Positions 1 through 64,000 of a stretch of 64,000 nucleotides of DNA are shown in pieces. Origin of the DNA: Convolutriloba macropyga (lineage: Eukaryota); contig NC_134473.1 in assembly GCF_964194025.1 (NCBI RefSeq), positions 71,114,001 to 71,178,000 of the forward strand, in the 5' to 3' direction. The first letter of the stretch is position 1, and every line of letters begins with the position of its first letter. The translations under genes were made by a program, and so were the position numbers. Below the pieces are notes generated by a model that did not search any database, was not told the origin of the DNA, and saw nothing but the letters and a program-made list of their open reading frames with translations.

Positions 1-3000
1 GGCCAAACCGTTAAGGTAGTCAAACAAACAAGACTAACATTCACAATGGCACATCAACAATTCACAGAATCCTTTTTAGTTTTACCGACGGCAAACTCAA
101 TCATCCTAGGAAACCCTTTCTTCAAAAAACATGACATCACCATTAGCCCAGCACGTAAATTTCTACAATTATCAGACTTGACCATACAAATTAACGAAAT
201 AAAGCCGACAAACGAACCACGAAGAGTAGTTAGACAGAAAAAGATACCAATTTATCTCACGAAAAATACAACGATACAACCAAACCAGCATGCTATTCTA
301 GAATGTTCACCACCTGAAAGCACTGAAGAGTACAAAAACCTCAGTGGAGTACTGATACCGAATGAAATTTTGGAAAGAGAAACAGACTTAGCTTTCACTT
401 CTTCACTTAGCACAATTAGTGACCAGAATAAATTGTTTGTATCAACAATAAACATTACAAATCATCCAATTACCCTACACAAACGTACAGAAGTAGCAAG
501 ATTTTCAATATTGACACCCGAACAAGCAGATCAACTCATCAAAATTGATCCTGAACTTATAGCACTCGCTAAGTTCAGAGAAAAGGAAAACGAAATCCCA
601 GAAATCAATCAACTTATTCAAGACACAGAAAAGAAAGGAAAATTGCAACCGCCGCGACCTCCTCCAGACTACAATTCACTATGGTTCCCGACGCCAGAAA
701 CATGCGATCACCCCGAATTGCTGACACCAATCCAGTTAGAAATTTATAAAAAATTACAAGAACTTAGAAAAATGGAAAACTCAGACCCAATTAATAACAT
801 TGATGACCGACACAATTTCCTTCGCAGATTCCCTTGGAACAAATCAGCCTTAAACCCTGAACAGAAGGAAGAACTCGAAATACTGATACTTGAATATTGT
901 GATATTTTCGCGAAACATCGATTTGACGTCGGTTACAATACAGAACTGAAAATCAAACTGACTCCTGAGCATTCCATGCCAATGTACGTCCAAGGCCCTC
1001 CCACACCAGTACACCTCAGAGAAGAACTACAAGTGGAACTAGCCTTGATGCAGTACTATGGCCTCATCACAACATTGCCTCAATCGAAATACAGTAGCCC
1101 TTTGTTTGCTCACAGAAAGGAATCCGGTAAACTACGACTGCTAATTGATCTCCGGAGAATAAATCACCTTTTAAAAAACGATTATCTTAACTCAAATTTT
1201 CCAATCTCTAACATCACTGATGCAACTAATCACTTTGCCGGAAAGACACTTTTCACAAAACTAGACTGCTCACAAGCATATCACTGTGTCCAAATGGCAG
1301 ATGATTTATCAACACAACTTTTAGCGTTTAACTTTTCATCTCGGACCTATGCATACAAGTGTTTGGCACAAGGCCTCAACAAATCAGTGACCGGATTTAG
1401 TTCTTTCATAAGACATTACCTTGATCCTTGCTTGGCAGCAGACGTTTGTACACAATTCATGGACGATATTGGATGTGCGGTATCAAACTTTCAAGAGCTT
1501 TTACCAACACTAAGAAAAATTTTCGACTGTATTCGCAGATCTGGACTGAAACTAGCACCAGAGAAATGTGAAATAGCCTGCAAGTCAATGAAGTTCCTTG
1601 GAAACATTATAAACTCATCCGGAATTTCACCTGAAGCCGCAAAAATATCAAAATTCCTAAACACAATAAAAATGCCACAGACAACAAAACAAGTCAAAAG
1701 GCTAATCGGCTTTGTACAATTTTTCAAAAACTACATACCAAACCTTGGTGAAAAATTAATACCATTCTACCAACTGCTCAAAAAAGACGCAAAAATACAA
1801 CCCAGTGAAAAACACTATGAAAGACTTGAAATCATTAAAAAAGATTTACTCGAAGCAACCGACATGACATTACGACTCCCCCGACCTGACCTTCAGTACA
1901 TTTTATTATGTGATGCCAGCTACTATGCAGCCGGATTTGTTTTAATGGTAGAAGACTATGTCCAAGGAAAACAATCGAAAGAGAGGAAAACATATGCACC
2001 GGTATCATTTGGAAGCCAAACGTTCACAACAGCGCAACTCAAGTTCTCGATTTATTACAAAGAATTTTTAGCTCTCTATTTTGCATTGGAACATTTTGCT
2101 CATTACATTTGGGGCGCTAGTCAGCCAATTGTAGTACTCACAGACAACAAAAGCCTAACGCAGTTTTTCCAATCAAAGACTATACCACCCTCACTATGGA
2201 ACTTCCTGGACAGAGTCCTATCTTTCAACATAGTGATAGCACATATACCTGGGAGAGCTAACTACGCAGCAGATTTTTTGTCTAGAATTGAAACAGACAG
2301 ATCAGCAAGCCTTACGCTGAAAATGAACGACAAAATCCCAATACGCGAATTTGAAATAGACACGAAAGCAGATACACCAGATGTAACACTGAATGCAATT
2401 GATACAATAGATGAAATCTTCACACCAAAGAACCAACAAACCGAATTTGAGGAGCAACTCAAATTGCATGGGTTATATGAATCTTACTTAGAGCGTCAAG
2501 CAAGCCAACCAGCTGACGAGATAAAGGGATTTGTAAGATTCCATATACATCAAATAAATGCGCTACAATTCACAAACCCAGCAGATACTTTGAACGACAT
2601 ATTACAAAAAACTGACCCATTAGACCTAAAGCACGAACAAATGCAAGATGATGAAGTCCGTAGAGTGATTGAGTGGAAAATGAATGGAAGCCTAGTTGAC
2701 GTAACATACGGAACAAAAGTACTCAAAAAATACTACAAGCAATTAAATCGACTCATAGTGAAAGAAGGAATACTTTACCGTCTCTTTTATAACGATGTTG
2801 GACAAGTACAGTACGAGCAATACTGTTTACCAAAGCATTTGTGGAAGGAAGTACTTTATCGACTTCACAATTCACGTACAGCAGGTCACAATAGAATAAA
2901 CCGAATAATACAGGAATTCCGTCAAAGATTCTATTTCCCAGGCTTCACAGAACAACTACTAGACCTAGTCAAGAACTGTCTCACATGTCTCCAGCTCCGA

Positions 3001-5151
3001 AAAGCCAATGAGAAGCATCTCAGACCGAGTTTACAACCCTTGTCATCACTACAGTCATACCCAGGTGATATGCTACAAATAGATTTAGTGGGAACATTCA
3101 ATTCACCAGTTTACAAATATGTGCTAAGTGGCATAGATGTTTTTTCAAAGTTCTTGTTCGCCGTACCTTTAACAAATGCCAGCGCAGACACTGTAGCTAG
3201 AGAACTAGTGAAAATTTTCTTTAACCATAGTTACATCCCTGAGACCATTCTAAGTGATCTTGGCACAACATTCACATCGTCACTCTTCCATGAGCTTACT
3301 AAACTACTAGAAATAAAATTAAAACATGCAACTCTTAAACACCCGCAAACAATCGGGGTAGTAGAAAGATCACACAACGCTGCTTTGAAACGAATACTGA
3401 AAATCAATACAAGCAGTCAGTGGAATGACTGGCACAAATATGTCTCTCTCGCAGTCTTCATTCATAATACATCATATCACCACTCAATCGGCTGTTGCCC
3501 ATCCTCAATCTTCCACGGACGAGACCCGATCAAACCTTTGGATATACGATTTTCCAGGAAAGCAATGGAATCCGTTGAAACCAACTCTGATTACGTAAAT
3601 GCTTTACAGGACTCCATGATCACTAAATTCGCAGAAAACAAATTACGATTGATAGAATCTTATCAGCGATACAGATATTATTATGACAAAAAAGCGGAAG
3701 CTAAACCACTGCAGTTGCATTCATACTGTCTTCTTCTCAATCCAAAAATAACATCTCAACAACAAACGATCACAAAGACAGTCCAAGTTTGGTTACCACT
3801 TTATAGAGTAGAGAAAGTCTTAACTGACTCGAACTATATTATAAGAAAAACGGGCACACATTTTACCCAGTGTGTACATCGAATTCGAGTCCGCCCTATA
3901 AAACGACCAGACAATTTAGACGATTTAGCCACCATTGACCCAGCAGAGTTCAAAGCCGATCCGTCGCGAAGAGATACCAAAAAAGAGCCAGAACTCTTTG
4001 ACGAATATTTGGAAAACCTTGCATTTAATGATGTTTCCATAAACAACCATCCACCAGAACCACCCTCAGCTAAGAACCCTGTGAAAGTGTCACTATCAAT
4101 TCCAATTGCACCAGCTGCAGCACCTAGAGCCGAGCACCCTGCACCTGAAATCAGGCAACAACCAATAGTAGAACACCCGCCGACTCCAGAAAATGAAACA
4201 CCACCCCAATCACCCCCACCTATAACCAGAACTAATGTACTCGATGACCAAAAGGATAATGCAACCAATGAACCTGATCGCTTAGCACTGGGGTATGAAA
4301 AACGAAAATCGGAAAGACCACAAAACGTTGTTTATGGACCATCACCATTGAAACCTACGAAAATTCCGAAAAAAATCCAGTTCTCAAACCAAGTCGCTAG
4401 ACGGCAATATACAACTACCGACAGGAAAACACCAACTCGGAGAGCAACAACAATAGACGGACAAGCATTAGAAGTCTTGAATACAGACGAAACACCAACG
4501 AGAAGCGAAAAACGAAAAATAATTCAAAAATCTGTACAAAAAGCAAAAAGCTCAGAAGGCACTTCACGGGAAGTTAAATTAGACCAAGTCCGTGCTAGCA
4601 TTTTGAAATATCAAGGGAACGCAGAAACAGAACCCTCCCCTACGTCAGAGAAACGGAAAAAAACAAGAAACAACAAACAAACAACTATCAATTCTTTCAC
4701 ACCAAAAAACTGGCAAAAAATATTTTATGTCAAAGGCAATATTCTACGAATACCTTACCCTATAGCACATTCCATCTCAGCTGATTTCCATATGGGAAAA
4801 GGCTTCGCCAGACGCGTATCACGACAGTACCCGGGAATCAAACAAATAGCCGAGAAAAGTCCACAACTTCCAATCGGAGCGGTAATGTCATATTATGAAC
4901 CACGTGAAGACAAAATTATATTCAACCTTATCACAAAAAAACACTTCTTTGAGAAACCGACATATTACGCATTGTCACAAACACTTCACAACTTAAAGTA
5001 TCTGTTATTAAAACATCAAATCGATACTATAATCTTTCCAAAAATTGGATGTGGACTTGATCAGCTCAAAGAGAAAACAGTCTTCCATTTGATCCGCGAC
5101 ACATTTTCGAACTCAAAAATAACAGTGTATCATCAATTCTCAAAAAGCTGA
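1..5151 (+). CDS. pol: Pol polyprotein, 5'-truncated by the window: protease C-term, dUTPase-like spacer, RT, RNase H, integrase, Pro-rich linker, C-terminal macrodomain
   Basis: Frame is open from base 1. Motifs: protease IILGNPFF; RT SSPLF..RK..GKLRLLIDLR, LDCSQAY, QGL and FMDD (1456-1467); RNase H CDAS..EFLA..TDNKSL; integrase HHCC (H-NSRTAG-H..CLTC) and D..D-35-E (IDLVG / SDLG / VVER). No stops in about 1700 codons. Confidence 0.96.
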   Translation, partial: GQTVKVVKQTRLTFTMAHQQFTESFLVLPTANSIILGNPFFKKHDITISPARKFLQLSDLTIQINEIKPTNEPRRVVRQKKIPIYLTKNTTIQPNQHAILECSPPESTEEYKNLSGVLIPNEILERETDLAFTSSLSTISDQNKLFVSTINITNHPITLHKRTEVARFSILTPEQADQLIKIDPELIALAKFREKENEIPEINQLIQDTEKKGKLQPPRPPPDYNSLWFPTPETCDHPELLTPIQLEIYKKLQELRKMENSDPINNIDDRHNFLRRFPWNKSALNPEQKEELEILILEYCDIFAKHRFDVGYNTELKIKLTPEHSMPMYVQGPPTPVHLREELQVELALMQYYGLITTLPQSKYSSPLFAHRKESGKLRLLIDLRRINHLLKNDYLNSNFPISNITDATNHFAGKTLFTKLDCSQAYHCVQMADDLSTQLLAFNFSSRTYAYKCLAQGLNKSVTGFSSFIRHYLDPCLAADVCTQFMDDIGCAVSNFQELLPTLRKIFDCIRRSGLKLAPEKCEIACKSMKFLGNIINSSGISPEAAKISKFLNTIKMPQTTKQVKRLIGFVQFFKNYIPNLGEKLIPFYQLLKKDAKIQPSEKHYERLEIIKKDLLEATDMTLRLPRPDLQYILLCDASYYAAGFVLMVEDYVQGKQSKERKTYAPVSFGSQTFTTAQLKFSIYYKEFLALYFALEHFAHYIWGASQPIVVLTDNKSLTQFFQSKTIPPSLWNFLDRVLSFNIVIAHIPGRANYAADFLSRIETDRSASLTLKMNDKIPIREFEIDTKADTPDVTLNAIDTIDEIFTPKNQQTEFEEQLKLHGLYESYLERQASQPADEIKGFVRFHIHQINALQFTNPADTLNDILQKTDPLDLKHEQMQDDEVRRVIEWKMNGSLVDVTYGTKVLKKYYKQLNRLIVKEGILYRLFYNDVGQVQYEQYCLPKHLWKEVLYRLHNSRTAGHNRINRIIQEFRQRFYFPGFTEQLLDLVKNCLTCLQLRKANEKHLRPSLQPLSSLQSYPGDMLQIDLVGTFNSPVYKYVLSGIDVFSKFLFAVPLTNASADTVARELVKIFFNHSYIPETILSDLGTTFTSSLFHELTKLLEIKLKHATLKHPQTIGVVERSHNAALKRILKINTSSQWNDWHKYVSLAVFIHNTSYHHSIGCCPSSIFHGRDPIKPLDIRFSRKAMESVETNSDYVNALQDSMITKFAENKLRLIESYQRYRYYYDKKAEAKPLQLHSYCLLLNPKITSQQQTITKTVQVWLPLYRVEKVLTDSNYIIRKTGTHFTQCVHRIRVRPIKRPDNLDDLATIDPAEFKADPSRRDTKKEPELFDEYLENLAFNDVSINNHPPEPPSAKNPVKVSLSIPIAPAAAPRAEHPAPEIRQQPIVEHPPTPENETPPQSPPPITRTNVLDDQKDNATNEPDRLALGYEKRKSERPQNVVYGPSPLKPTKIPKKIQFSNQVARRQYTTTDRKTPTRRATTIDGQALEVLNTDETPTRSEKRKIIQKSVQKAKSSEGTSREVKLDQVRASILKYQGNAETEPSPTSEKRKKTRNNKQTTINSFTPKNWQKIFYVKGNILRIPYPIAHSISADFHMGKGFARRVSRQYPGIKQIAEKSPQLPIGAVMSYYEPREDKIIFNLITKKHFFEKPTYYALSQTLHNLKYLLLKHQIDTIIFPKIGCGLDQLKEKTVFHLIRDTFSNSKITVYHQFSKS
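4720..5136 (+). other. TARG1/OARD1 (Poa1p/DarG-like) macrodomain fused in frame to the Pol C-terminus
   Basis: IFYVKGNI..IAHSISADFHMGKGFA..IFNLITKK..KPTY..L...L..L..FPKIGCGLDQL..ITVY matches, motif for motif, human OARD1 as I recall it (ITYVKGDL..LAHCISEDCRMGAGIA..YYLITKK..KPTY..MPRIGCGLDRL..ITVY). Confidence 0.92.
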
Positions 5152-6385: not shown

Positions 6386-6994
6386 TCATGAATTGATTGG
6401 CCCTTTTTGACGTTGCTGATTTCTTCGTACACCTAAGGCGCCTTGTGTCACACCAGCCCAAGCAGTTTTCTTTCTCTCTTCACTGATTAATGTTGATATA
6501 GAAAGAAGACACGTAAACTGATTTTGCACCCCAAAAGTCGAAACTGTATGGTGCCATCCATAAGGAAGATAAAGTGTCTCCCCGGGCGCTTGAACGGCAA
6601 TATATGCTTGGTCCACAAGCTCTGGCAGCTGATCGATAAGTGCTGGAACCTCTCTGGCCAATCTTACGACTTCAGCAGCAAACTTTCCAGGAGGCAACAA
6701 AATCCACAATTTTGAGGCTTGCCCGTGCAAAGTGATAAAAGAATCAGCAGCATCCTCCCAATCGGAATGCCAAGGCACGAACTGGGGTCCCTCGCCCAGG
6801 ATGCAAAATCCAAACGACCACGGAGCCAATTCAAACGTTGGGGGCAGCTTGTAATCTATATCACACTTGTACTCCTCCTTCAAGGTACAGTTAAATAAAA
6901 TGTCTTTGCCGAAGTTTCCGTACCGCGTTTCATCAACGGGCCAATTGAAACGCTTAGTGATGTTCCCAAACTTCTTTATATTCGCTAGGTCGCG
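6386..6994 (-). CDS. JmjC-domain (cupin-like) 2-oxoglutarate/Fe(II) dioxygenase, main exon (202 aa plus stop)
   Basis: WHSD (HxD, 6761-6769), SKLWILLPP and QAPGETLYLPYGWHHTV (distal His 6548-6550) are JmjC signatures. The frame stays open upstream of the tracked start to a TTTCAG acceptor at 6995-7000. Confidence 0.85.
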   Translation of the reverse strand, partial: RDLANIKKFGNITKRFNWPVDETRYGNFGKDILFNCTLKEEYKCDIDYKLPPTFELAPWSFGFCILGEGPQFVPWHSDWEDAADSFITLHGQASKLWILLPPGKFAAEVVRLAREVPALIDQLPELVDQAYIAVQAPGETLYLPYGWHHTVSTFGVQNQFTCLLSISTLISEERKKTAWAGVTQGALGVRRNQQRQKGPINS

Positions 6995-7090
6995 CTGAAA
7001 ATTTCATTAATCATTTAATATACAGTACAAAAGGCAAATTATTCGAGGAAACTCCAACAACTGCAAAACGTACTAAATAAGGAAACTCAC

Positions 7091-7232
7091 GTTTAAATTC
7101 CGATCAGAGAACTTCACAAGCTGTCTTTATGATCGAAGGAACACCAACCTCCACTTCCTTTGGCTGCACTCGCTTTACAGGCCGTAACAAAGCCTCAGCT
7201 TTAGATTTCAGATCATAAAATTCAGAAATCAT
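7091..7232 (-). CDS. Probable first coding exon of the JmjC gene (MISEFYDLKSKAEALLRPVK..GVPSIIKT / VKFSDRNLN)
   Basis: Acceptor TTTCCAG then ATCAAAATG at 7238-7230, GTGAGT donor at 7090-7085, and a 96-nt intron to the main exon. The ATG frame meets TGA at 7106-7104, so a 1-nt frameshift or a 58-nt GT-AG intron (7121-7178) is needed. Confidence 0.5.
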
Positions 7233-7521
7233 TTTGATCTGGAAATGAAATTTTAATTCATGCTAACATGCAATGATAACTAAAGCTACAAACATCTACA
7301 CAAAACGCTTTAAACACACGTGCTAAACTGTTTATTTCACGCACTCTGACAACACACTTAATTGAACTTTGTTGGGTAAAACATTACATGCACATGCACA
7401 CACTGAGTAATTAAATGAGGCATTAAAACAAACAGTTCTAACAATTGGTAAAGCACTCACTAAGTCTCAATGAAACTAACTCTTCCCTTCACTTACTCAT
7501 GCAGACACAAACTACACTGAT

Positions 7522-7746
7522 TTAACCTCTGAATAGGAGCCAACTAACAGCCCCCCTCAGTATGCACAAAACCAAGAGTATGATTAAGGCAACATAAATG
7601 AAGGACATCCAATCGAATTGATCTCCTTCAACTTGAACCCCACATTGTGGCGCATGGCCTCGAGTCCAAATGTTGAACCTTGCAAAATATGTGCCATTGG
7701 GACAGCAAGTAATAACAAACTCGTCAACAGTGACATTGAAACACAT
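7522..7746 (-). CDS. 74-aa single-pass membrane protein (accessory ORF of the retroelement)
   Basis: Real ATG in the context TTTTCAG|ATCAAAATG. N-terminal part has 4 Cys and two N-glycosylation sequons (NVT, NGT), followed by hydrophobic helix FIYVALIILLVLCIL. Confidence 0.6.
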   Translation of the reverse strand: MCFNVTVDEFVITCCPNGTYFARFNIWTRGHAPQCGVQVEGDQFDWMSFIYVALIILLVLCILRGAVSWLLFRG

Positions 7747-7930
7747 TTTGATCTGAAAAGCTCAATGAATATCAAATAAACTGATCCAACAAAATAAAGA
7801 GATTATGAAAGTTAAACAATTAACTAAATCATTCAAACACACAAACTGAACAAATAACCAGGGACAAATCAATTTTGACGTTTTGGAAGTACGCAGCTGC
7901 AAAATAATCATTGGGACACAAATCCAATCT

Positions 7931-7952
7931 AAATTTCAGTTACACAAAAATG
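7931..7952 (+). promoter_or_regulatory. Splice acceptor and start context for a subgenomic env mRNA
   Basis: AAATTTCAG (AG at 7938-7939), 10 nt before the ATG at 7950, as expected for spliced env expression. Confidence 0.55.
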
Positions 7953-10226
7953 AGATTAATTCTTTACCTTTTGACTTTATGCGAAGTATGCCTAATTCAG
8001 TCAACAAAATCAACTGACTACTTGTCTAAAGGAATTTTGTTCAATGAGAAAAGCAAAATCCTTTTGGCTGAAAAGTTTGTTAACATCGAATTCCTCGTTC
8101 CATTCCCAGAATACAATTTTACTACTAGAGCTTCAATCCAGGAAATGTTGACAAAACTAGCCGAAATGTGGAAACTTCCGTCAGTTTTCTGCCCCCTAGA
8201 TTTTTCCAGTCATTTCAATTCAACCACCGAACCCTTTAACTTGAACTGGATGCTACAGAAAACTATAAGCGAAACAACTGAAGCCCAACGAGAAGTTGAT
8301 TCTATGCGAGAAGAAACCGCTACCTTTCTAACGATGGGAGAAGAAAACGAACGGAAAAGAAGAGGAGCACATGTTGGAGCCGCATTAATGGCTGGCATAG
8401 GACTATTTGGTGGAGGAATTCTCATGGGAAACTCAGGGAGCTGTGGTTTTGCCGGAATTTTTGGTAACTGTCAGGACCAAGGTAGAAAAAATGCGGAAAA
8501 CATTGCCCAATTGAACGAGTACGCATCTGTGTTGACAGACCATGTACTAGAAGTTGAAAGCGAGGCGAACGAAAAATTTTTTCTCATTTCGAATGAACTT
8601 GAGGAAATCCAGAAGATACAAAATGAAATTATGAAAAACCAAAACGAAAATTGGAAAATCATAGAAGATCAATTTGAAGTCATCGAAAAAAACTTTCATT
8701 TGCTGAGAGATTGTACACAGATGTTATTCTCCAACCAGCAACTGAATATCAATTTTGACACTGTAGCGTCTCTCTTGTCCATCCTCTATGCAGACATAAA
8801 GAGCTACAGATCAGCTCTGTATGCGTACAAAGTCAACCTACTAAACTCAATTCCAATTTTATTGAGTAAACGTCTACCTATGTCTCTAGTCCCAAAGTCA
8901 TCGTTAATGGCTATACTCAACTCAGTTTACGATAGTCAAAAAGATGCCACCGATCGCCTTACATTGGCAATACCGATGCAAGATCTTTTATCGTACTACG
9001 ATGCAGAATTATTAAGTGAAGTTTCAACTATCACAGAAGGACTGTTGTTAACATTATCTATCCCTCTCTCCTCAAGCCAGACAGCATTCAACGTATACCA
9101 GGCTCATCTCATACCCATGCCACAACTAGATTCTTCAGAAGCCTTAAGATGGGTTACTGAAGGCCCTTACTTGGCTATATCTGAAGATTCGATGGAAACT
9201 ACGGTATTAACTGAACAACAATATTCAAACTGCCTCGGATCATCAAGATACCAAATATGCCACGAAACTATAGAAACCCACCTGGGACAATCGTCTTGTT
9301 TAGCCACTCTTTACTTCCATAGCTCAATTACTGCTCTCACAGTTTGCGACACAGAAAAGATAACACTTCCTACACCAGAAAAGGCTACTAATCTTGGATA
9401 CGGCATCTGGCTCATTACGTCCGCTTCGAAGACATTCACACTTCGAGAATATAGCATCAGAAGTGACAATTTGCCACGAAGTACTGAGCACCCAGGATGT
9501 AACGTATGTATTGTCACATTGGAATGCGGCACTCAACTAATTAGTAAATACATCAAAATCAGACCAGACCTTCAAAGTTGCGAAAATATCCCAGCGAAAA
9601 GAATAGCAGTCAAACTACCAGATCCTTTACAACATCTCATCTCAGCCATCCCTGACATCTCAGAATTGCCCTACTTTGAATCCAAAGTCGATGCAAACGT
9701 TGCTATGTTGAAAACCGTGAAGAAACAGTTAACAAAAAGCTCACAATTCATTGAATTAGAACAACTTGATGCAATTGCAAAACCAATTGCTCACAAAATG
9801 AAACTACTAAAACCTACATTAACAAATAAGCTTGAAACCTACGTCCCAATTAAGCTTTCACTAACTTTGACCTTAATTGTCTTTATCGGAAATCTCATCC
9901 TCCATGTTCTAGCCATGTATCTATACCATCGATTCGCAATTTTCAAACGTCTAGTACCGAACTTTTTGACTCATGATAAATCGAAAGTACCACTGAAACC
10001 GGTTGTCACTATAGCGAGTGAACACAAGGAAGCAGTGCGAAAGAGTGCCCACAAGTGGAAAGATGCATTAACAGTACTCACAGCCCAAGAACTTGGCACA
10101 CTTGCACGATCACGGTCTTTGACAAACAGTCAACAACTTAACACTTCGAGAAATTCCCTCGCGACAATTGCACGAGAAGACAACCCAATGGACGACACCA
10201 TTGAATTGGCAGAAACATCTACTTAA
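7950..10226 (+). CDS. env: Envelope glycoprotein, class I F-type fusion protein (758 aa)
   Basis: Signal peptide MRLILYLLTLCEVCLIQS; furin site RKRR (8352-8363) directly followed by Gly/Ala-rich fusion peptide GAHVGAALMAGIGLFGGGILMG; heptad/coiled-coil region; Cys-rich ectodomain; TM LSLTLTLIVFIGNLILHVLAMYLY; cytoplasmic tail. Confidence 0.9.
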   Translation: MRLILYLLTLCEVCLIQSTKSTDYLSKGILFNEKSKILLAEKFVNIEFLVPFPEYNFTTRASIQEMLTKLAEMWKLPSVFCPLDFSSHFNSTTEPFNLNWMLQKTISETTEAQREVDSMREETATFLTMGEENERKRRGAHVGAALMAGIGLFGGGILMGNSGSCGFAGIFGNCQDQGRKNAENIAQLNEYASVLTDHVLEVESEANEKFFLISNELEEIQKIQNEIMKNQNENWKIIEDQFEVIEKNFHLLRDCTQMLFSNQQLNINFDTVASLLSILYADIKSYRSALYAYKVNLLNSIPILLSKRLPMSLVPKSSLMAILNSVYDSQKDATDRLTLAIPMQDLLSYYDAELLSEVSTITEGLLLTLSIPLSSSQTAFNVYQAHLIPMPQLDSSEALRWVTEGPYLAISEDSMETTVLTEQQYSNCLGSSRYQICHETIETHLGQSSCLATLYFHSSITALTVCDTEKITLPTPEKATNLGYGIWLITSASKTFTLREYSIRSDNLPRSTEHPGCNVCIVTLECGTQLISKYIKIRPDLQSCENIPAKRIAVKLPDPLQHLISAIPDISELPYFESKVDANVAMLKTVKKQLTKSSQFIELEQLDAIAKPIAHKMKLLKPTLTNKLETYVPIKLSLTLTLIVFIGNLILHVLAMYLYHRFAIFKRLVPNFLTHDKSKVPLKPVVTIASEHKEAVRKSAHKWKDALTVLTAQELGTLARSRSLTNSQQLNTSRNSLATIAREDNPMDDTIELAETST

Positions 10227-10461: not shown

Positions 10462-10810
10462 TGTGTGACATCCTAAATATTTTCATATTTAATTCCTAAA
10501 TATTTTCATATTTAATTAGATGTCAATCTATCATTTAACCTCTAAAGTAATAGACTCGAATTGACTTAATAGCCTTGATTTTCTCGTTCATATTATGCCC
10601 TTTACTATGCGAGTGCTTTCGAACAATGTTATTGAATTAGTCTAAATAAACCAATGTAAACTAAATGAACAGATTGCATTGATGTTATTAATCTTAACAT
10701 TATTTATAATGACCTTACATTCTTAATAAAATGAACCTCTAATCATTGAAAGTAGAGAATAGAATTCATACCCCAGAAGATGTGATCTAAAGTAAAGTTA
10801 CTTTAATTCA
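10462..10810 (+). repeat. Putative 3' LTR (end not determinable without the 5' LTR)
   Basis: Starts TGTGTGACA after the purine-rich AAAAAGCAGCG. AT-rich, with AATAAA at about 10585 and 10724 and an internal 23-bp tandem duplication. Confidence 0.45.
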
Positions 10811-10989
10811 TGTTCAAAATATAGCAGTTTTCAAACTAAGGCTGTCAGTTCCCACCGTTCGAAGACCTTAGACCGCTCTTCAGGAAAATTGAAAACCAAA
10901 ACATAAATTTGATAGAAGTTTATTTTGAATTTGATTTAAAATAACATAACAGATATACAGAAACTAAGTATATTACAACTACATTAAAA

Positions 10990-14748: not shown

Positions 14749-14932
14749 GTAAGCCAAGCGTATTGTCAATAGTATCTTATCACAAATTTTAACAAGTGTT
14801 CCCAAAAGGGGTACTGACTAAAATTGACCGTATTTTATTGCCTTGCCTTGCAATTAGAAATTTGTTGAATTTCGAATTCGTGCATGGAAATCAGCGATTT
14901 AAGTTTGAATGGTGATTGTTTGTTTGTTTTAG

Positions 14933-15583
14933 ACTTATTCCGGTGCTTGTGCAATGTATGCGTTACTCTGAAATTGACGTGATCCTTCTGAAAGGAGATC
15001 TGGAAGAGGACCAGCACATACCAGATCTTGAGAAAGACATCAAACCCCGCTTTCACTACTCTAAGACCTCTGGATCTGCCGGTAGACTCTCAAGCAACGG
15101 TTCTGCAGACTTAGCTTCAGATGATGAAGATATCGGAAGTCCGGGATTTGGACCTGGAGGTCCAGATCTGGATGATGAAGACACATTATCGAATTGGAAC
15201 CTAAGAAAGTGTTCAGCTGCGGGCCTGGACGTTTTATCAAATGTATTCCACGAAGATATCCTGGATACGTTATTACCCATTCTGAAATCTAAATTGCAGT
15301 CTACAGAATGGGAAGAAATAGAAGTTGCTATTCTAGCTTTAGGCGCTATAGCTGAAGGATGTATGAAGGGAATGATTCCTCACTTGCCCGATCTGATTCC
15401 GTTTTTAATTCAGGCGTTGAACTCGAAAAAGGCGTTAGTGAGAAGCATTACATGTTGGACTTTGTCTCGGTACACACAATGGGTGATGCAACAGCCTCAT
15501 GACATATGCTTGCAGCCTTTAATGTCAGCTTTGTTGAGAAAGATTCTTGATGCTAATAAACGGGTGCAGAAAGCAGCTTGCAG
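14933..15583 (+). CDS. TNPO1: Transportin-1 exon including the acidic H8 loop
   Basis: [47 protein letters not shown]; AG/GT boundaries in phase. Confidence 0.96.
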
Positions 15584-15656
15584 GTTAGTGGAACGAAAAA
15601 AACCTGATCTTTTCAAATATCAGCTCAGTGAAATATGTAGAAAGAAAGTGTTTATT

Positions 15657-16045
15657 AATTGCTCTTGAACGCAGTTCATAGCAATTATAGTAAACGTGTG
15701 TGTCTTTTTTTAATGCAAATTTTTCGCTTGACAGTTTTGCGCTTTTCTTCTAGAACATTCTTTGACTTCTCAAGTGACTTTTTCACGCTTTCGTTCTTCA
15801 TTTTTGAGTAATCTCTATTGCTCTGAAGTAAAGCTAATATAAATTCGGTTGCAGAATAAGTGAGGTATGTGCTCTGTAGCGCAGTGGTTAGTAGTTGTGG
15901 CTGTGGATCGGGAGGCCAGTGGTTCGAATCCCGGCGGAGGAAATATTTTTTTGCACCCATAATTTGATCTAGGCTACAGCCCCTGAATTAAATTGCCTCG
16001 CCTGTCGTTCAAGAGCAATTCTTCCGACATTTGTCGGTTTATGTT
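15657..16045 (+). mobile_element. Non-autonomous Helentron/DINE-1-like element, family B (AATTGCTCT subterminal inverted repeats)
   Basis: 5' AATTGCTCTTGAACG, 3' CGTTCAAGAGCAATT, then hairpin CCGACATTTGTCGG and a T-run. Related copies at about 26104-26440, 28446-28670, 31311-31505, 37816-38168 and 40146-40555. Confidence 0.7.
15871..15943 (+). pseudogene. tRNA-derived (His-like) SINE-head remnant inside a family B element
   Basis: A box TAGCGCAGTGG, B box GGTTCGAATCC and a CTGTGGA loop. Anticodon and acceptor stems pair poorly. Confidence 0.6.
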
Positions 16046-48689: not shown

Positions 48690-51600
48690 TTGTTTTTTGT
48701 AGACCGATTTGGTCAAAAATTTAAAATTACATTAGATTTTTACATTACCGTGTTAAATGCTGAGTTTTTGTTGATTAGTATGAATAATAAGTAGTTAATA
48801 TCATTAAATTTTATTAGGTCAAGTGTTGGAACTTTGGTCCGCTTTTGGGTTTATGGTTGTTTCTGCCAGGAGCAAACAATCGATTGATTGATGGTCCTTA
48901 TGATACTCAAATTACTCAAATAAACCTTTTCTTTTTTCTTTTCGTTTTCATTTTTCATTTAATGTCCTGTATGTTGTCTCAGTAGCCACTGAAAATTTAA
49001 AAACAAATTTTTTTAAAGGCTTTGGCGAACATTGGTTGACCAAATAACGCCTTTCGATTTGTATAGAATTTTCCGACAAGTAAGAATATTAATTGATCGA
49101 CTATGTTTTGGTCAATGAAACGCAATAATGATCCTACTTTTAGAAAAAAATTAGGATTTTCAAAAATATAGTTTTCACCAGCATTAAAAACAGAAATTGA
49201 ATCAAACTGATTTTTCGTTTTATTTTTCACCAGCTATTTCATTTCACTTTTTAGCGTTTTTTCCGACTTGAATTGATTCGAGTTGGTTTTCGAGTTGACA
49301 CGACCATATCGTTACACGCCAAGTAATCTGTCTTCTTCAATGACTTTTAACAATACACAGCAGTTGAATTTGTTGGTGGCGTCCATTTTTTGAATCTTTT
49401 TGTATAGGTTTTATGGAGAATTGTAAGTCATTCCGTGAAATTGCAAACACAATTCTTCATGGGAAAGACAAAGTTAATAAATTGAATTTTAACCAATTAA
49501 TTGATAGAGAGGTTTTGTGGTAGACTTGATTGCTTTTGAAAAATGATTTTTTGACTTTCTGTGATCTCGATTCCTCTCAAAATTAGTTTCGGAAGCTGAA
49601 AGACCTTGATTAATAATCTATTTTCTTACTGCCTGCAGCACAAATTTTTTTTGTCGACTGACTTGGTCAAAAATTTAAAATTACTTTAGATTTTTTGTTG
49701 GTGTGTTAAGTGATGAATTTTTGTTGTGATTAGTATGAATAATAAGTAGTTAATATCATAAATATTAGATTTGTCAAATGTTGTTAATTTAGTACGTTTT
49801 TGGTTTATGGTTGTTTTTGCCAGGAGCAAACAATCGAATGATTGATGGTCCTTTTGATACTCAGATTAATCCAATAAACCATTTCTCATATTTTTAAGTT
49901 TTGTTTTTTTCGTTTTTGTTTTCTATTTAAATTCCTCTATGTTGTTTCGATAGCCAGTTAAAACCTAAGAACAATTTTTTTAAGGCTTTTCCGAACAACA
50001 TTTGACCAAATAATGTCCCTCAATTTTTATAAAAATTTCTGTAAGTAAACTAAAATTTGAATTTTTTGTCTTGTCTTTTCCCTTTTCCTCGACGTTTTAT
50101 GCTTCTGTTGTTCTTATTAATTTGTAGACTATATTTTGCTCAATGAATCATATTATTGATCCTACTTTAAAAAAATAAGATTTCTAAAAATTTAGTTTTC
50201 ACCAGCATTTTAAGCAGAAATTGAATCAGACTGCTTTTTCATTTTCTTTTTCACTAGCTATTTCATTTCACTTTTAAGCAATTTTTCCAAATTGAGTTGA
50301 TTCGAATTGATTCTGGAGTCTTCTGATAACGTTTTCTAATTTGTTTCTTCATTACTTTGTCACGACCATATCGTTACACGCCAAGTAGTCGGTGTCTTTA
50401 TCAATGACTTTTTGTTGACAAAACACTGCAGTTAAGTTTGTTCGTGGCGTCCATTTTTTGAATAGTTTTGTACAGGTGTTATGGGAAATTGTGAGTAACT
50501 TTGTGAACTTGCAAATACAATTCTTAAAGTGAGAAGACATAGTTAATAAATTGTTTTTTTAAATATTTGATAGAGGTTTCGTGGTAGACTTGATTGCTTT
50601 TGCAAAATGGTTTTTGACTTTCTGGGATCTTGATTCCTTTGAAAATTAGTTTTGGAAGCTGAAAGACATTGCTTAAAAATCTATTTTCTACTATCTGTAA
50701 CACAAATATTTTTTATCGACCGATGAGGTCGAAAATTTAAAATTACATTAGGTTTTTACATTACTGTGTTAAATGGTGAATTTTTGTTGATTAGTATGAA
50801 TAATAATTAGCTAATATCATAAAAAAAATTTAGTCAAATGTTGGTATTTCAGTCTTTATTTGGCTTTATGTTTGTTTTTGCCAGGAGCAAACATTGGAAT
50901 GGTTGAACGTCCTTTGATACTCAACTTACTCAAGTAAACCATTTCGCATGTTTTTTTTACAAGTGTTTGTTTTCTTTTTGTTTTTTATTTAATGTCCTTT
51001 TTGTTGTCTCGGTAGTCACTAAAAATATAAAAGCAAATGTTTTTTAAAGGCTTTGGCGAACAATGTTTGACCAAATATTGTGTCTCAATTTGCATAGAAA
51101 TTTCCGAAAATTAAGAATAGATTTTGAAATTTTCGTCTTTTCTTTTCCCTTTTCCTGGCGTTCTGTGCTTCGTTTGTTCTTATTAATTTGTCGACTATGT
51201 TTTGCTCACTGAATCATATTAACGATCCTATTTCAAAAAAATTAGGATTTCTAAGAATATAGTTTTCACCAGCATTAAAACCAGAAATTGAATCAGACTG
51301 TTTTCATTTTATTTTTCACGAGCTGTTTCATTTCACTTTTTAGCATTTTTCTCCAAATTGAATTAATTTGAGTTGATTCTCGAGTTGACACGACCATATC
51401 GTTACACGCCAAGTAATTAAAGTGTCTTTTTCAATGACTTTTAAAAATACACAGCAGTTAACTTTGTTCGTGGCGTCCACTTTTTGAATCTTTTTGTATA
51501 GGTTTTATGGAGAATTGGGAGTAATTCCTTGAAACTGCAAACACAATTCTTGATGGGACAGACAAAGTTAATAAATTGAATTTTTAACTAATTAATTGAT

Positions 51601-54600
51601 AGAGAGGTTTTGTGGTAGACTTGTTTGCTTTTGGAAAACGGTTTTTGACTTGGTGATCTTGATTCCTCTGAAAATTAGGTTTGGCTGAAAGACCTTGTTT
51701 AAAATTCTATTTTCTGACTACCTGAAGCACAAATGTTTTTTAAAGACCGATTTGGTCAAAAATTTAAAAAAATTATATTTTTTCATTGCTGTGTTAAATG
51801 CTGAATTTTTGTTCAGTTTAGTTTGAATAATAAGTACCTAATAATCATAAAAATAATTTTTTGGAATGTTGGTATTTCAGTCCGTATTTCGGTTTATGCT
51901 TGTTTTTGGCAGGAGCAAACAATCGAATGATTGAAGGTCCTTTGAGACTCAATTTACTCAAACAAAACTTTTCGCATGTGTTTTATACAAGTTTTTTTTT
52001 CTTTTTGTTTTTTGTTTTTTTATTTGATGTCCTGTATGTTGTCTCGGGAGCCACTGAAAATTTTAAAATAAATGTTTTTTAAAGGCTTTGGCGAACAATG
52101 GTTGACCAAATAACGTGTCTCAAATTGTACAGAAATTGCCGAAAAGTAAGAATATTATTTGGTCGACTATGATTTGGTCAATGAATCGCATTAATGATCC
52201 TACTTTAAAAAAAATTAAGATTTCTGAAAATAATGTTTTCACCAGCATTTTAAGCAAAATTGAATAAGACTGCTTATTCTATTTTTTTCCAGCTATTTGT
52301 TTTCACTTTTTAGCACTTTTTAGAAAATGAGTTGATTCGAGTTGTTTCCGGAGTCTTCTGGTAACGTTTTCTAATTTGTGTCTGCCTTTTTTGTCACGAC
52401 CATATCGTTACACGCCAAGTAGTCAAATCGTCTTTTTCAATGAGTTTTGACAATACATTGCAGTTAAATTTGTTCGTGGCGTCCATTTTTTGACTCAAAT
52501 TGCATAGTCTTCATGGAAAATTCTGTGAACTTGCAAACACAATTCTTGAAGGGAGATGTCAAAGTATAATAATTAATTGATAGAGAGGTTTTGTGTTAAA
52601 CTTGATTGCCTTGGGAAATTGGTTTTTTCGATTTTCTGTGATCTTGATTCCTCTGAAAATTTGTTTTGAAAGTTGAAAGTTCTTGTTTAAAAATCTATTT
52701 TCTTGCTACCTGTAGCACCAATGTTTTTTTTCTAATGATTTGGTCAAAAATTTTAAATACATTAGATTTTTACATTATCGTGTTAAATGCTGATGTTTTG
52801 TTGATTAGTATGAATAATAATTAGTTAATATCATTAAATTTTATTAGGTCAAGTGTTGGAACTTTGGTCTGTTTTTGGGTTTATGGTTGCTTTTGCCAGG
52901 AGCAAACAATCGAATGATTGATGGTACTTGTGATAATCAAATTACTCAAATAAACCATTTCTCATGTTTTTTATACCAGTTTTGTTTTCTTTTCGTTTTT
53001 GTTTTTCTTTTAATGTCCTTTATGTTGTCTCGGTAGTCACTAAAAATCTAAAAGAAAGTGTTTTTTAAAGGCATTGGCGAACAATGTTTGACCAAATAAC
53101 GTCTCTCAAATTGTATAGAAATTTCCGAAAAGTAAGAATATTAATTGGTCGGCTATGATTTGGTCAATGAATCGCAATAATGATCCTACTTTAAAAAAAT
53201 GAAGATTTCTAAAATATAGTTTTCTTCATCGTTAAAACCAGAAATTGAATCAGACTGTTTTTTCATTTTATTTTTCACCAGCTATTTCATTTCACTTTTT
53301 AGCATTTTTTTCCAAATTGAATTGATTCGAGTTGATTCTAGAGTTGAAACGACCATATCGTTACACGACAAATAAACAATGTGTCTTTTTCAATTACTTT
53401 TAACAATACACATCAGTTGAATTTGTTCGTGGCGTCCATTTTTTGAATATTTTTGTATAGGTTTTATCGGAGAATTGTGAGTAATTCCGTGAAATTGCAA
53501 ATACAATTCTTGATGGGAAAGACAAACTTAATAAATTGAATTTTTAACTAATTAATTGATAGAGAGGTTTTTGGTAGACTTGTTTGCTTTTGGAAAACGG
53601 TTTTTGACTTTCTGTGATCTTGATTCCTCTGAAAATTAGTTTTGGAAGCTGAAAAACCTTGTTTATAAATCTATTTTCTGACTACTTGAAGCACAAATGT
53701 TTTTTGTAGACCGATTTAGTCGAAAATTTAAAACTACATTAGATTTTTACATTGCTGTGTTAAATGCTGAATTTTTCTGATTAGTATGATTAATAAGTAG
53801 CTAATATCATAAAAATAAATTAGTCAAATGTTGGTTTTTCAGTCTGTATCTGGATTTATGGTAGTTTTTGCCAGAAGCAAACAATCGAATGGCTGAAGGT
53901 CCTTTGATACTCAACTTACTCAAATAAACCATTTCGCATGCTTTTTATACAAGTTTTTGTGTTTGCTTTTTGTTTTGGTTTTTTATTGTCCTGTTTGTTG
54001 TCTCGGTAGCCACTGAAAATTTAAAAACAAATGTTTTTTAAAGGCGTTGGCGAACAATGGTTGACCAAATAACGTCTCTCAAATTGTATAGAAATTTCCG
54101 AAAAGTAAGAATATTAATTGGTCGGCTATGTTTTGGTGAATGAATCGCATTAATGATTCTACTTTTAAAAAATTAAGATTTATGAAAATATAGTTTTCAC
54201 CAGCATTTTAAGCAGAAATTGAATAAGACTGCTGTTTTCATTTTATTTTTTACCAGCTATTTCATTTCACTTTTTAGCATTTTTTCCGAATTGAGTTGAT
54301 TCGAGTTGTTTCCGGAGTTTTCTGGTAACGTCTTCTAATTTGTGTCTTCCTTTTTTTTGTCAAGACCATATCGTTACACCCCAAGTAGTCAAATTGTCTT
54401 TTTCAATGACTTTCAACAATACACAGCAGTTAAATTTGTTGGTGGCGTCCATGTTTTGAATCATATTGTTTAGGTTTCATGGAAAATTCTGTGAACTTGC
54501 AAACAGAATTCTTGAAGGGAGAAATCAAAGTTTAATAATTAATTGATAAAGAGGTTTTGTGGTAGACTTGATTGCCTTGGGAAATTGGTTTTTTCGACTT

Positions 54601-54850
54601 TCTGTGATCTTGATTCCTCTGAAGATTTGTTTTGAAAGCTGAAAGACCTTGATTAATAATCTATTTTCTTACTGCCTGTAGCACCAATATTTTTTTTATC
54701 TAATGATTTGGTCAAAAATTTTAAATACATTAGATTTTTACATTATCGTGTTAAATGCTGATTTTTTGTTGATTAGTATGAATAATAATTAGTTAATATC
54801 ATTAAATTTTATTAGGTCAAGTGTTGGAACTTTGGTCTGTTTTTGGTCTT
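48690..54850. repeat. ~1.0-kb tandem satellite, about 6 units, organised as a ~2-kb A/B higher-order repeat
   Basis: GACCATATCGTTAC at about 49302, 50363, 51392, 52398, 53351 and 54364; CCAGGAGCAAACA-type motif at similar spacing. Confidence 0.92.
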
Positions 54851-62875: not shown

Positions 62876-63071
62876 AATTCTGAATGTATGATGAGGCATA
62901 ACATTTTCACAAGCGCTGGTTTTTAATTTCATCTTGAGCTCAATACGTGGACTTGGTCATCGTTCTCGATGATATTTCCTTTCATTCCCAGCTGCTCTGT
63001 TTATCTAAGCAGAATGGAAAGAAATAACAATCATGATACAAATTTCGCATTGTTTCTTTTAAATTTTCAAT

Positions 63072-63953
63072 TTAGATTTAGACTTGCCAAGTCTTAAATC
63101 AGACTTGGATTTAGACTTGCCAAGTCTTAAATCAGACTTGGATTTAGATTTGCCAAGTCTTAGGTCAGACTTCGATTTAGATTTGCCAAGTCTTAGGTCA
63201 GACTTGGATTTAGATTTGCCAAGTCTTAGGTCAGACTAGACTTGGATTTAGACTTGCCAAGTCTTAAATCAGACTTGGATTAAGAATTGCCAAGTCTTAA
63301 ATTAGACTTGGATTTAGATTTGCCAAGTCTTAGGTCAGACTTGGATTTAGATTTGCCAAGTCTTAGGTCAGACTTGGATTTAGATTTGCCAAGTCTTAGG
63401 TCAGACTTGGATTTAGATTTGCCAAGTCTTAAATCAGACTGGGATTTAGACTTGCCAAGTCTTAAATCAGACTTGGATTGAGAATTGCCAAGTCTTAAAT
63501 CAGACTTGGATTTAGATTTGCCAAGTCTTAGGTCAGACTTGGATTTAGATTTGCCAAGTCTTAGGTCAGACTTGGATTTAGACTTGCCAGTTCTTAAATC
63601 AGACTTGGATTTAGACTTGCCAAGTCTTAAATCAGACTTGGATTAAGAATTGCCAAGTCTTAAATCAGACTTGGATTTAGATTTGCCAAGTCTTAGGTCA
63701 GACTTGGATTTAGATTTTCCAAGTCTTAGGTCAGACTTGGATTTAGATTTGCCAAGTCTTAAATCAGACTTGGATTTAGATTTGCCAAGTCTTAGGTCAG
63801 ACTTGGATTTAGATTTGCCAAATCTTAAATCAGACTTGGATTTAGACTTGCCAAGTCTTAAATCAGACTTGGATTTAGACTTGCCAAGTCTTAAATCAGA
63901 CTTGGATTTAGACTTGCCAAGTCTTATATCAGACTTGGATTTAGACTGCCAAG
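63072..63953. repeat. 33-bp minisatellite, about 26-27 copies
   Basis: Unit TTAGA(C/T)TTGCCAAGTCTTA(AA/GG)TCAGACTTGGAT. Confidence 0.97.
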
Positions 63954-64000
63954 TGTAAAAAGTGACATGATCATAGCTCTGAATCAGTATTGAAATGAGA

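Follow-up and report, generated by a model that had tools for sequence, protein, structure and literature searches.

Antisense JmjC genes between pol and env in Ty3/gypsy elements of Convolutriloba macropyga, candidate erasers of repressive chromatin marks

The window analysed here is a stretch of 64,000 nucleotides of Convolutriloba macropyga DNA (assembly GCF_964194025.1, contig NC_134473.1, positions 71,114,001 to 71,178,000, forward strand), into which a 13.6-kb Ty3/gypsy element extends from the neighbouring stretch L031. Long terminal repeats (LTRs), a target-site duplication, gag, and the order RT-RNase H-integrase were all present, with 514-bp LTRs differing at 0 positions and a 5-bp duplication. 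The insertion lies in an early intron of transportin-1, upstream exons of which were located by eye at L031:2569-3030. A cassette of about 2.8 kb parts pol (1-5151) from an env-like ORF (7947-10226), and within it a JmjC gene runs antisense to both, as had been proposed in the original prediction of an antisense JmjC gene inside an LTR retroelement, made from the letters of the window alone. Gene A, the acceptors before the start codons, the TARG1-like macrodomain of pol, a second JmjC clade, and the swapping of cassettes between elements had no place in that prediction. Coordinates are collected in Table 1.

Table 1. Features of the element and its surroundings, in window positions
Feature	Position	Strand	Remarks
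gag frame, 406 codons, and 5′ LTR			precede pol, in neighbouring stretch L031
pol (RT, RNase H, integrase), open	1..5151	plus	frame starts upstream of window, 1834 codons in total
TARG1/OARD1-like macrodomain, pol C-terminus	4720..5148	plus	PDB E 2e-18 to OARD1; Pfam Macro E 9e-4
JmjC exon 2	6386..6994	minus	202 codons and stop; H76-x-D78, K95, H149; whole beta-helix core
Intron, 96-nt GT-AG	6995..7090	minus	phase 0 in intact relatives; position kept, interior diverged
JmjC exon 1, 142 nt	7091..7232	minus	broken in window copy: off-phase relative to exon 2, stop at 7106-7104
U-rich spacer, 289 nt	7233..7521	minus	ends in splice acceptor (last base 7239), 6 nt ahead of JmjC ATG
Gene A, 74 aa in window	7522..7746	minus	CCxNGT motif; C-terminal hydrophobic stretch; acceptor (last base 7753) 6 nt before ATG
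env-like ORF, 759 aa from Met	7947..10226	plus	hydrophobic N-terminus; RKRR/G, then hydrophobic stretch; late hydrophobic helix
3′ LTR, 514 bp	10464..10977	plus	identical to 5′ LTR at L031:7390-7903
Target-site duplication, 5 bp	10978..10982	plus	
Host transportin-1 exon	14916..15668	plus	PDB E 7e-77

The env-like ORF had no Pfam and no relevant PDB match, and its AF2 model reached a pLDDT of 34; by layout, compared by eye with the F-type features described in the main text of PMC13524379, it is likely of the F type. The macrodomain at the end of pol was also seen in many relatives of the element, and a literature search found no report on a pol-fused TARG1-like macrodomain. In the host region of the window, a tandem repeat array with units of ~1 kb (48700-54800) and a 33-bp minisatellite (62936-64000) were observed.

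On the minus strand, the window frame of exon 2 encodes H76-S-D78, the distal H149, and K95 within SKLW, matching the iron triad and lysine that had been predicted, and the predicted 96-nt intron is bounded by a GTGAGT donor at 7090 and a TTTCAG acceptor ending at 6995. A Pfam search with this frame gave JmjC at E 9e-4, below the curated cut-off. Exon 1, measured from the ATG at 7232 to the donor, gives 142 nt (phase 1), but exon 2 requires phase 0, and an in-frame TGA stands at 7106-7104; because of these two lesions the window copy is broken and unable to yield a full protein. A sister copy on C3, 98% identical, has an exon 1 of 144 nt free of stops, and the idea of an intact gene in the window, implied by the original prediction, was rejected on the phase mismatch, the TGA, and this comparison, leaving exon 2, intron, and ligands standing. 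Assembly error as the source of the break was unsupported: contigs from 4/4 DNA runs (at most two samples from one study, possibly the source of the assembly itself) track the window gaplessly through exon 1, and the break is therefore probably genuine. Right behind the JmjC stop, a 35-nt GTAAGT...CTGCAG stretch (6378-6344, minus strand) may be a small 3′ UTR intron.

Of 119 candidates in a genome search with exon 2, 97 were matches (a figure that does not count copies), the most distant sharing ~30% protein identity. When 10-kb stretches were fetched for 36 JmjC loci, 35 had pol and/or env on the strand opposite to the gene, in an unchanged order, which agrees with the predicted capture of a JmjC-only gene by an element family (clade I hereafter). 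The lone exception, L047, is a tandem array of a JmjC fragment; in L047 and L018-L030 (C2:27.10 Mb), ~11 such fragments follow one another with a period of ~1.14 kb, and the fetched 10 kb contain no pol or env.

For the splice sites, 31 copies, which fall into ~8 subfamilies and are not independent, were examined: an AG stands ahead of the homologous first exon-2 codon in every one, and 28 also show a GT donor 60-110 nt upstream. Exon 1 could be scored in 23 copies, of which 17 were phase 0 and open and 6 were off-phase with a stop; L054 and L041 additionally read as phase 0 and open in a separate reading of exon 1, and intact exons 1 measured 138-186 nt (46-62 codons). Introns were more diverged than exon 2 in 4/4 pairs (identity 0.47-0.59 versus 0.58-0.75), and none of the 31 copies was intronless. 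An antisense intron is not spliced out of sense genomic RNA, and the absence of intronless copies fits such an escape. Judged from these sequences, the JmjC gene family of the elements is old.

The metal ligands are conserved among homologous elements, as anticipated, with H76 and D78 kept in 21/21 open exon-2 frames and the distal H149 in 20/21. The 2-oxoglutarate (2OG)-binding lysine (K95) was found in 20/21 frames and the 2OG-binding threonine in 16/21, with valine in the subfamily of the window. By profile alignment to PHF8, from which the residue numbering was taken, the place of Y234 is aromatic in 21/21 frames and that of F250 in 20/21, while the place of Asn333 is serine in 21/21, preceded by LL where KDM7 has GG; the methyl-lysine pocket roles of Y234, F250, and N333 are those given in the accessible text of PMC13632499. 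A Pfam search over the 21 frames showed no PHD, CXXC, or JHD domain, and the proteins thus have no evident means of targeting.

Selection was assessed from dN/dS in 22 pairs. The pair L052-L058 gave a dN of 0.13 at a dS of 2.7, and its changes divide 31/14/97 among first, second, and third codon positions; in 8 between-subfamily pairs dS was saturated at a dN of 0.26-0.52, and 3 moderately close pairs gave dN/dS of 0.20-0.26. Near-identical pairs showed values of 0.6-1.3, or too few changes, as expected from decay after insertion. Selection between subfamilies is purifying, and because the JmjC region overlaps no sense ORF, it acts on the JmjC protein.

Elements without the gene were also found. 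Of 16 stretches picked by integrase, 4 carry JmjC and 12 show none, the picks being biased in that they were drawn from matches not already known for clade I and several were truncated. A 99% relative of the window element (L203+L187, C16:33.86 Mb), whose own LTRs differ at 2/517 places, has lost the cassette and most of env by an internal deletion. A window copy broken despite identical LTRs, a close relative without the cassette, and the 12 JmjC-less stretches together indicate that the gene is dispensable in cis. The broken young copy, the absence from this relative and from other active-looking families, and the regulation by antisense RNA discussed for plant elements in the accessible text of PMC7264820 are what would be expected if the gene were passive cargo, or if mere antisense RNA limited the element and the protein brought it no benefit. 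This explanation is nonetheless very improbable, since it is largely refuted by the codon statistics (the third-position excess in L052-L058 and the low dN/dS), and since phase-0 lengths of exon 1 and invariant catalytic residues, in a region clear of sense ORFs, need selection at the protein level.

In JmjC-less lineages, other antisense frames were seen in the same slot (L189:6327-7193, L195:5367-6161, L199:5080-5826). One slot frame has a C-x-F-S-S-V motif, which we take to recall OTU proteases; an OTU-like reading of these frames was dropped, with a meaningful Pfam match in 0/9.

To place the enzymes among JmjC proteins, profiles, trees, and folds were compared. Against solved structures, the clade I profile matched PHF8, PHF2, and KDM7A first (E 3e-7 to 4e-6), with JMJD6 (E 0.055) and KDM2A (E 0.07) at lower ranks, and a profile extended by distant relatives gave PHF8 at E 2e-11 and JMJD6 at E 6e-3. 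A search of 1.84 billion representatives returned 122 matches, namely family members, then compact JmjC proteins, then mostly PHD/JHD-bearing KDM2/7. In a 55-row tree (P0074, P0094, and the partial host JMJD6 exon left out; JMJD5, 7, and 8 absent), clade I, the second clade (clade II), and compact relatives formed one group (96/88) outside KDM2/7 (99/98), to which it was joined at only 91/70, on long branches. Approximately unbiased (AU) tests on 26 rows rejected neither a KDM2/7 partner (p 0.69) nor a JMJD4/6 partner (p 0.45-0.52). The profile search and tree proposed with the original prediction thus gave a KDM7-first ranking from the one and a separate group, with JMJD4/6 not rejected, from the other. 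Clade I most resembles the KDM7 core at the sequence level, yet falls outside the KDM7 family. A recent capture from a host KDM7 gene was considered and is unsupported, because the host exon nests within KDM2/7 and the element genes do not.

An AF2 model built from 21 natural exon-2 frames (pLDDT 74.5) matched JmjC folds with a double-stranded beta-helix, in line with the predicted JmjC or cupin match; the best Foldseek and VIA matches were JmjC chains (Z 10.6, rmsd 3.7, 177 aligned), and the Z-scores tie between PHF2 (10.6), FIH (10.5), and JMJD5 (10.3). A search of viral structures returned weak JmjC and cupin matches only. For the distant relatives P0033-P0061, 0/95 pattern matches were confirmed in metagenome contigs, and 3 of these proteins had no close match in the host genome; their N-termini aligned with exon 1 collinearly but weakly (P 0.006, probability 6%).

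The original suggestion that the compact form stands closer to JMJD4/5/6/7/8-type hydroxylases than to KDMs found no support in sequence, profiles putting PHF8, PHF2, and KDM7A first, while the AU tests and folds do not separate the two. A related possibility is an active enzyme with a non-histone substrate: RNA, one of the element's proteins, or a host protein of restriction or silencing, which it would hydroxylate or demethylate. The compact JmjC-only form, serine for Asn333 of KDM7 with LL for GG before it, the fold tie with FIH and JMJD5, and the unrejected tree partners would suit such a substrate, and the membrane-type gene A and the de-ADP-ribosylase-like domain of pol fit a broader counter-defence. 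Against it, profile E-values for KDM7 are 5 to 8 orders of magnitude better than those for JMJD6, clade I retains the two aromatic residues of the cage, and a JmjC-only form arose from KDM4 too, in the giant viruses of Amoebidium (accessible text of PMC11244446). We regard the non-histone reading as tentative, well short of an even chance.

Clade II has the HxE form and a long frame without the clade I intron. A single-query search gave matches for 150/150 scored from 462 candidates, and 18/20 sampled loci were antisense to env and/or pol, the gene lying beyond env in six. Iron ligands were kept in 14/14 aligned frames, with Thr, His, Glu, Gly, Ser, and the distal His conserved, and the motif T-x-x-H-x-E-x-G is near the KDM7 motif. 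Clade II matched the clade I profile at 94% (E 1e-7), and its own profile had no PDB match with an E of 1 or lower. Elements carrying clade I or clade II have integrases 71-80% identical. A third JmjC-like type occurs next to env in the L098 family; L098-L109 are multi-copy, with env and an interrupted gene of this type with a basic tail, and the fetched stretches contain no pol.

That the proteins serve mainly as binders or decoys for methylated substrates or the partners of host KDMs, with catalysis secondary, is improbable. It would agree with the valine for the 2OG threonine in the window's subfamily and with a second antisense JmjC-like frame in one lineage (L102:7290-8045, minus strand; hhalign 78%), which adjoins an intact-looking clade II gene and lacks metal ligands. 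Metal ligands and the 2OG lysine, however, persist in clades I and II and in distant relatives at ~20% mean identity.

Gene A shares the cassette with the JmjC gene. Across subfamilies it encodes a conserved protein of 73-95 aa (20 CCxNGT motif matches in fetched loci) that likely passes the membrane once, to judge from its hydrophobic stretch, and it had no Pfam match. Some subfamilies show a signal-peptide-like start, and gene A was also seen in JmjC-less lineages. In every subfamily with a readable start, the ATGs of gene A and JmjC stand 5-9 nt past a U-rich acceptor; an acceptor with an ATG behind it was found for 2/3 in the cassette versus 0/4 on the antisense strand of pol/env, in small numbers. 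The host genome gave 2493 matches to the spliced leader of the acoel Symsagittifera roscoffensis (control 0), and the host is therefore likely an acoel with trans-splicing. Since each start codon follows an acceptor and the host has the acoel spliced leader, the cassette is likely an operon-like unit, and trans-splicing would give a simple account of the acceptors ahead of both ATGs. In L111-L140, many leader copies run straight into related ORFs of up to ~340 codons (by eye), which look like the 5′ ends of leader-carrying LINE-type elements.

Both acceptors might instead be served by alternative cis-splicing from a single upstream antisense leader, as for accessory genes of complex retroviruses, with no spliced leader involved. 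Subfamilies L056, L061, and L065 have a short non-coding exon with a donor upstream of gene A, and no leader-joined cassette retrocopy was found among 30 loci examined from the 302 matches at which a genomic leader copy has an ATG within 12 nt. The frequency of such leader-ATG junctions points the other way, as do the U-rich spacers, in which a GTRAG donor is absent in 4/7 spacers and in L051, and so does the accessible text of PMC9911081, in which the acoel bearing this leader trans-splices about 30% of its genes. Cis-splicing is a plausible route that we judge somewhat less than evenly probable.

The cassette also moves between elements. Over pol and env, L039 and L040 agree at 93-94% of positions, but identity drops to 64% in the JmjC core, with a dN of 0.006 for RT versus 0.35 for JmjC (the RT tree excludes L045 and L052, whose rows contain stops). 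Near-identical pol and env with such divergent JmjC genes indicate that the cassette was exchanged as a block, and slot exchange of this kind is as expected in an arms race.

With the chances for and against evenly poised, we propose that intact copies encode a compact Fe(II)/2-oxoglutarate JmjC eraser of repressive lysine methylation on chromatin, acting in trans and countering silencing. One antisense transcript would bear gene A and JmjC, and the acceptor before each ATG would be joined to the spliced leader or to a cis donor lying far upstream. The JmjC intron would be spliced from this antisense RNA; in the sense genomic RNA it would not be recognised as one, and would therefore survive reverse transcription. 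The enzyme would then strip repressive lysine methylation off element chromatin, and because the protein is proposed to act in trans, broken or deleted copies would still move. The sole pointer to a histone substrate is the nearest-profile likeness to KDM7; the element's second eraser-type domain, the TARG1-like one, also counts for the counter-silencing reading. Counting against erasure are the serine at the Asn333 place, the valine for the 2OG threonine, the missing targeting domain, the tree position outside KDM2/7, the fold tie, and the clade II profile without a PDB match. A bolder version, in which a trans-spliced and swapped cassette forms an antisense counter-defence operon, its main cargo, active JmjC demethylases of a clade confined to mobile elements and present in hundreds of copies, strips H3K9/H3K27 methylation in trans, and LTR elements were thereby helped to take half of the genome, seems unlikely.

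Across numerous lineages with env, selection maintains two or more divergent clades of JmjC genes. Should these enzymes prove to remove repressive methylation, they would provide a direct and testable anti-silencing mechanism in an animal genome dominated by LTR elements; should they act on other substrates, a host restriction pathway not yet recognised would be indicated. The enzymes are small and lend themselves to assays, and both cassette-bearing and cassette-free elements occur naturally, so that the two can be compared. Chromatin erasers on transposons are known in DNA transposons and giant viruses, and none was found reported for an animal retroelement; a search of largely open-access literature turned up no publication that describes JmjC genes within LTR retroelements.

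Among known systems, KDM7 (PHF8, PHF2, KDM7A) and KDM2 give the best profile matches and have in common with clade I the HxD/E...H ligands, the lysine, mostly the threonine, and the Y234/F250 aromatics (accessible text of PMC13632499), whereas the element genes are without PHD, CXXC, and JHD, have serine for Asn333, and form a separate clade in the tree; the host genome retains a PHD-bearing KDM7 gene of its own. Invertebrate errantiviruses, which are env-carrying Ty3/gypsy elements, show gag-pol-env, a furin site, and a fusion-peptide-like stretch as in the window element, but the main text of PMC13524379 has no acoel, antisense, macro, or JmjC terms, and the window element has its cassette between pol and env. 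Plant Retand, Grande, and RIRE2 elements carry conserved ORFs in antisense downstream of pol, expressed from a transcript of their own and sharing that position with the JmjC cassette; these ORFs resemble nothing in databases and lack a known function, and no JmjC term occurs in the accessible text of the paper (PMC7264820). DNMT-carrying retrotransposons (PMC5890265) and TET/JBP-carrying fungal DNA transposons, in which TET genes shift between element lineages (PMC12730594), likewise keep a captured epigenetic enzyme over many copies, according to the accessible text of both papers, but theirs are DNA-methylation enzymes and not JmjC, and the TET study, as far as its accessible text goes, found no TET gene in any retrotransposon. 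The closest published case, going by the accessible text of PMC11244446, is the JmjC-only expansion in endogenised giant viruses of Amoebidium, which carry many KDM4-like, JmjC-only, intron-containing genes and for which an anti-silencing role was proposed. As here, many JmjC-only genes with introns sit on a mobile element; there it is a DNA giant virus with genes of KDM4 origin, and here an LTR element with an RNA intermediate, carrying its JmjC genes antisense and with a KDM2/7-like profile.
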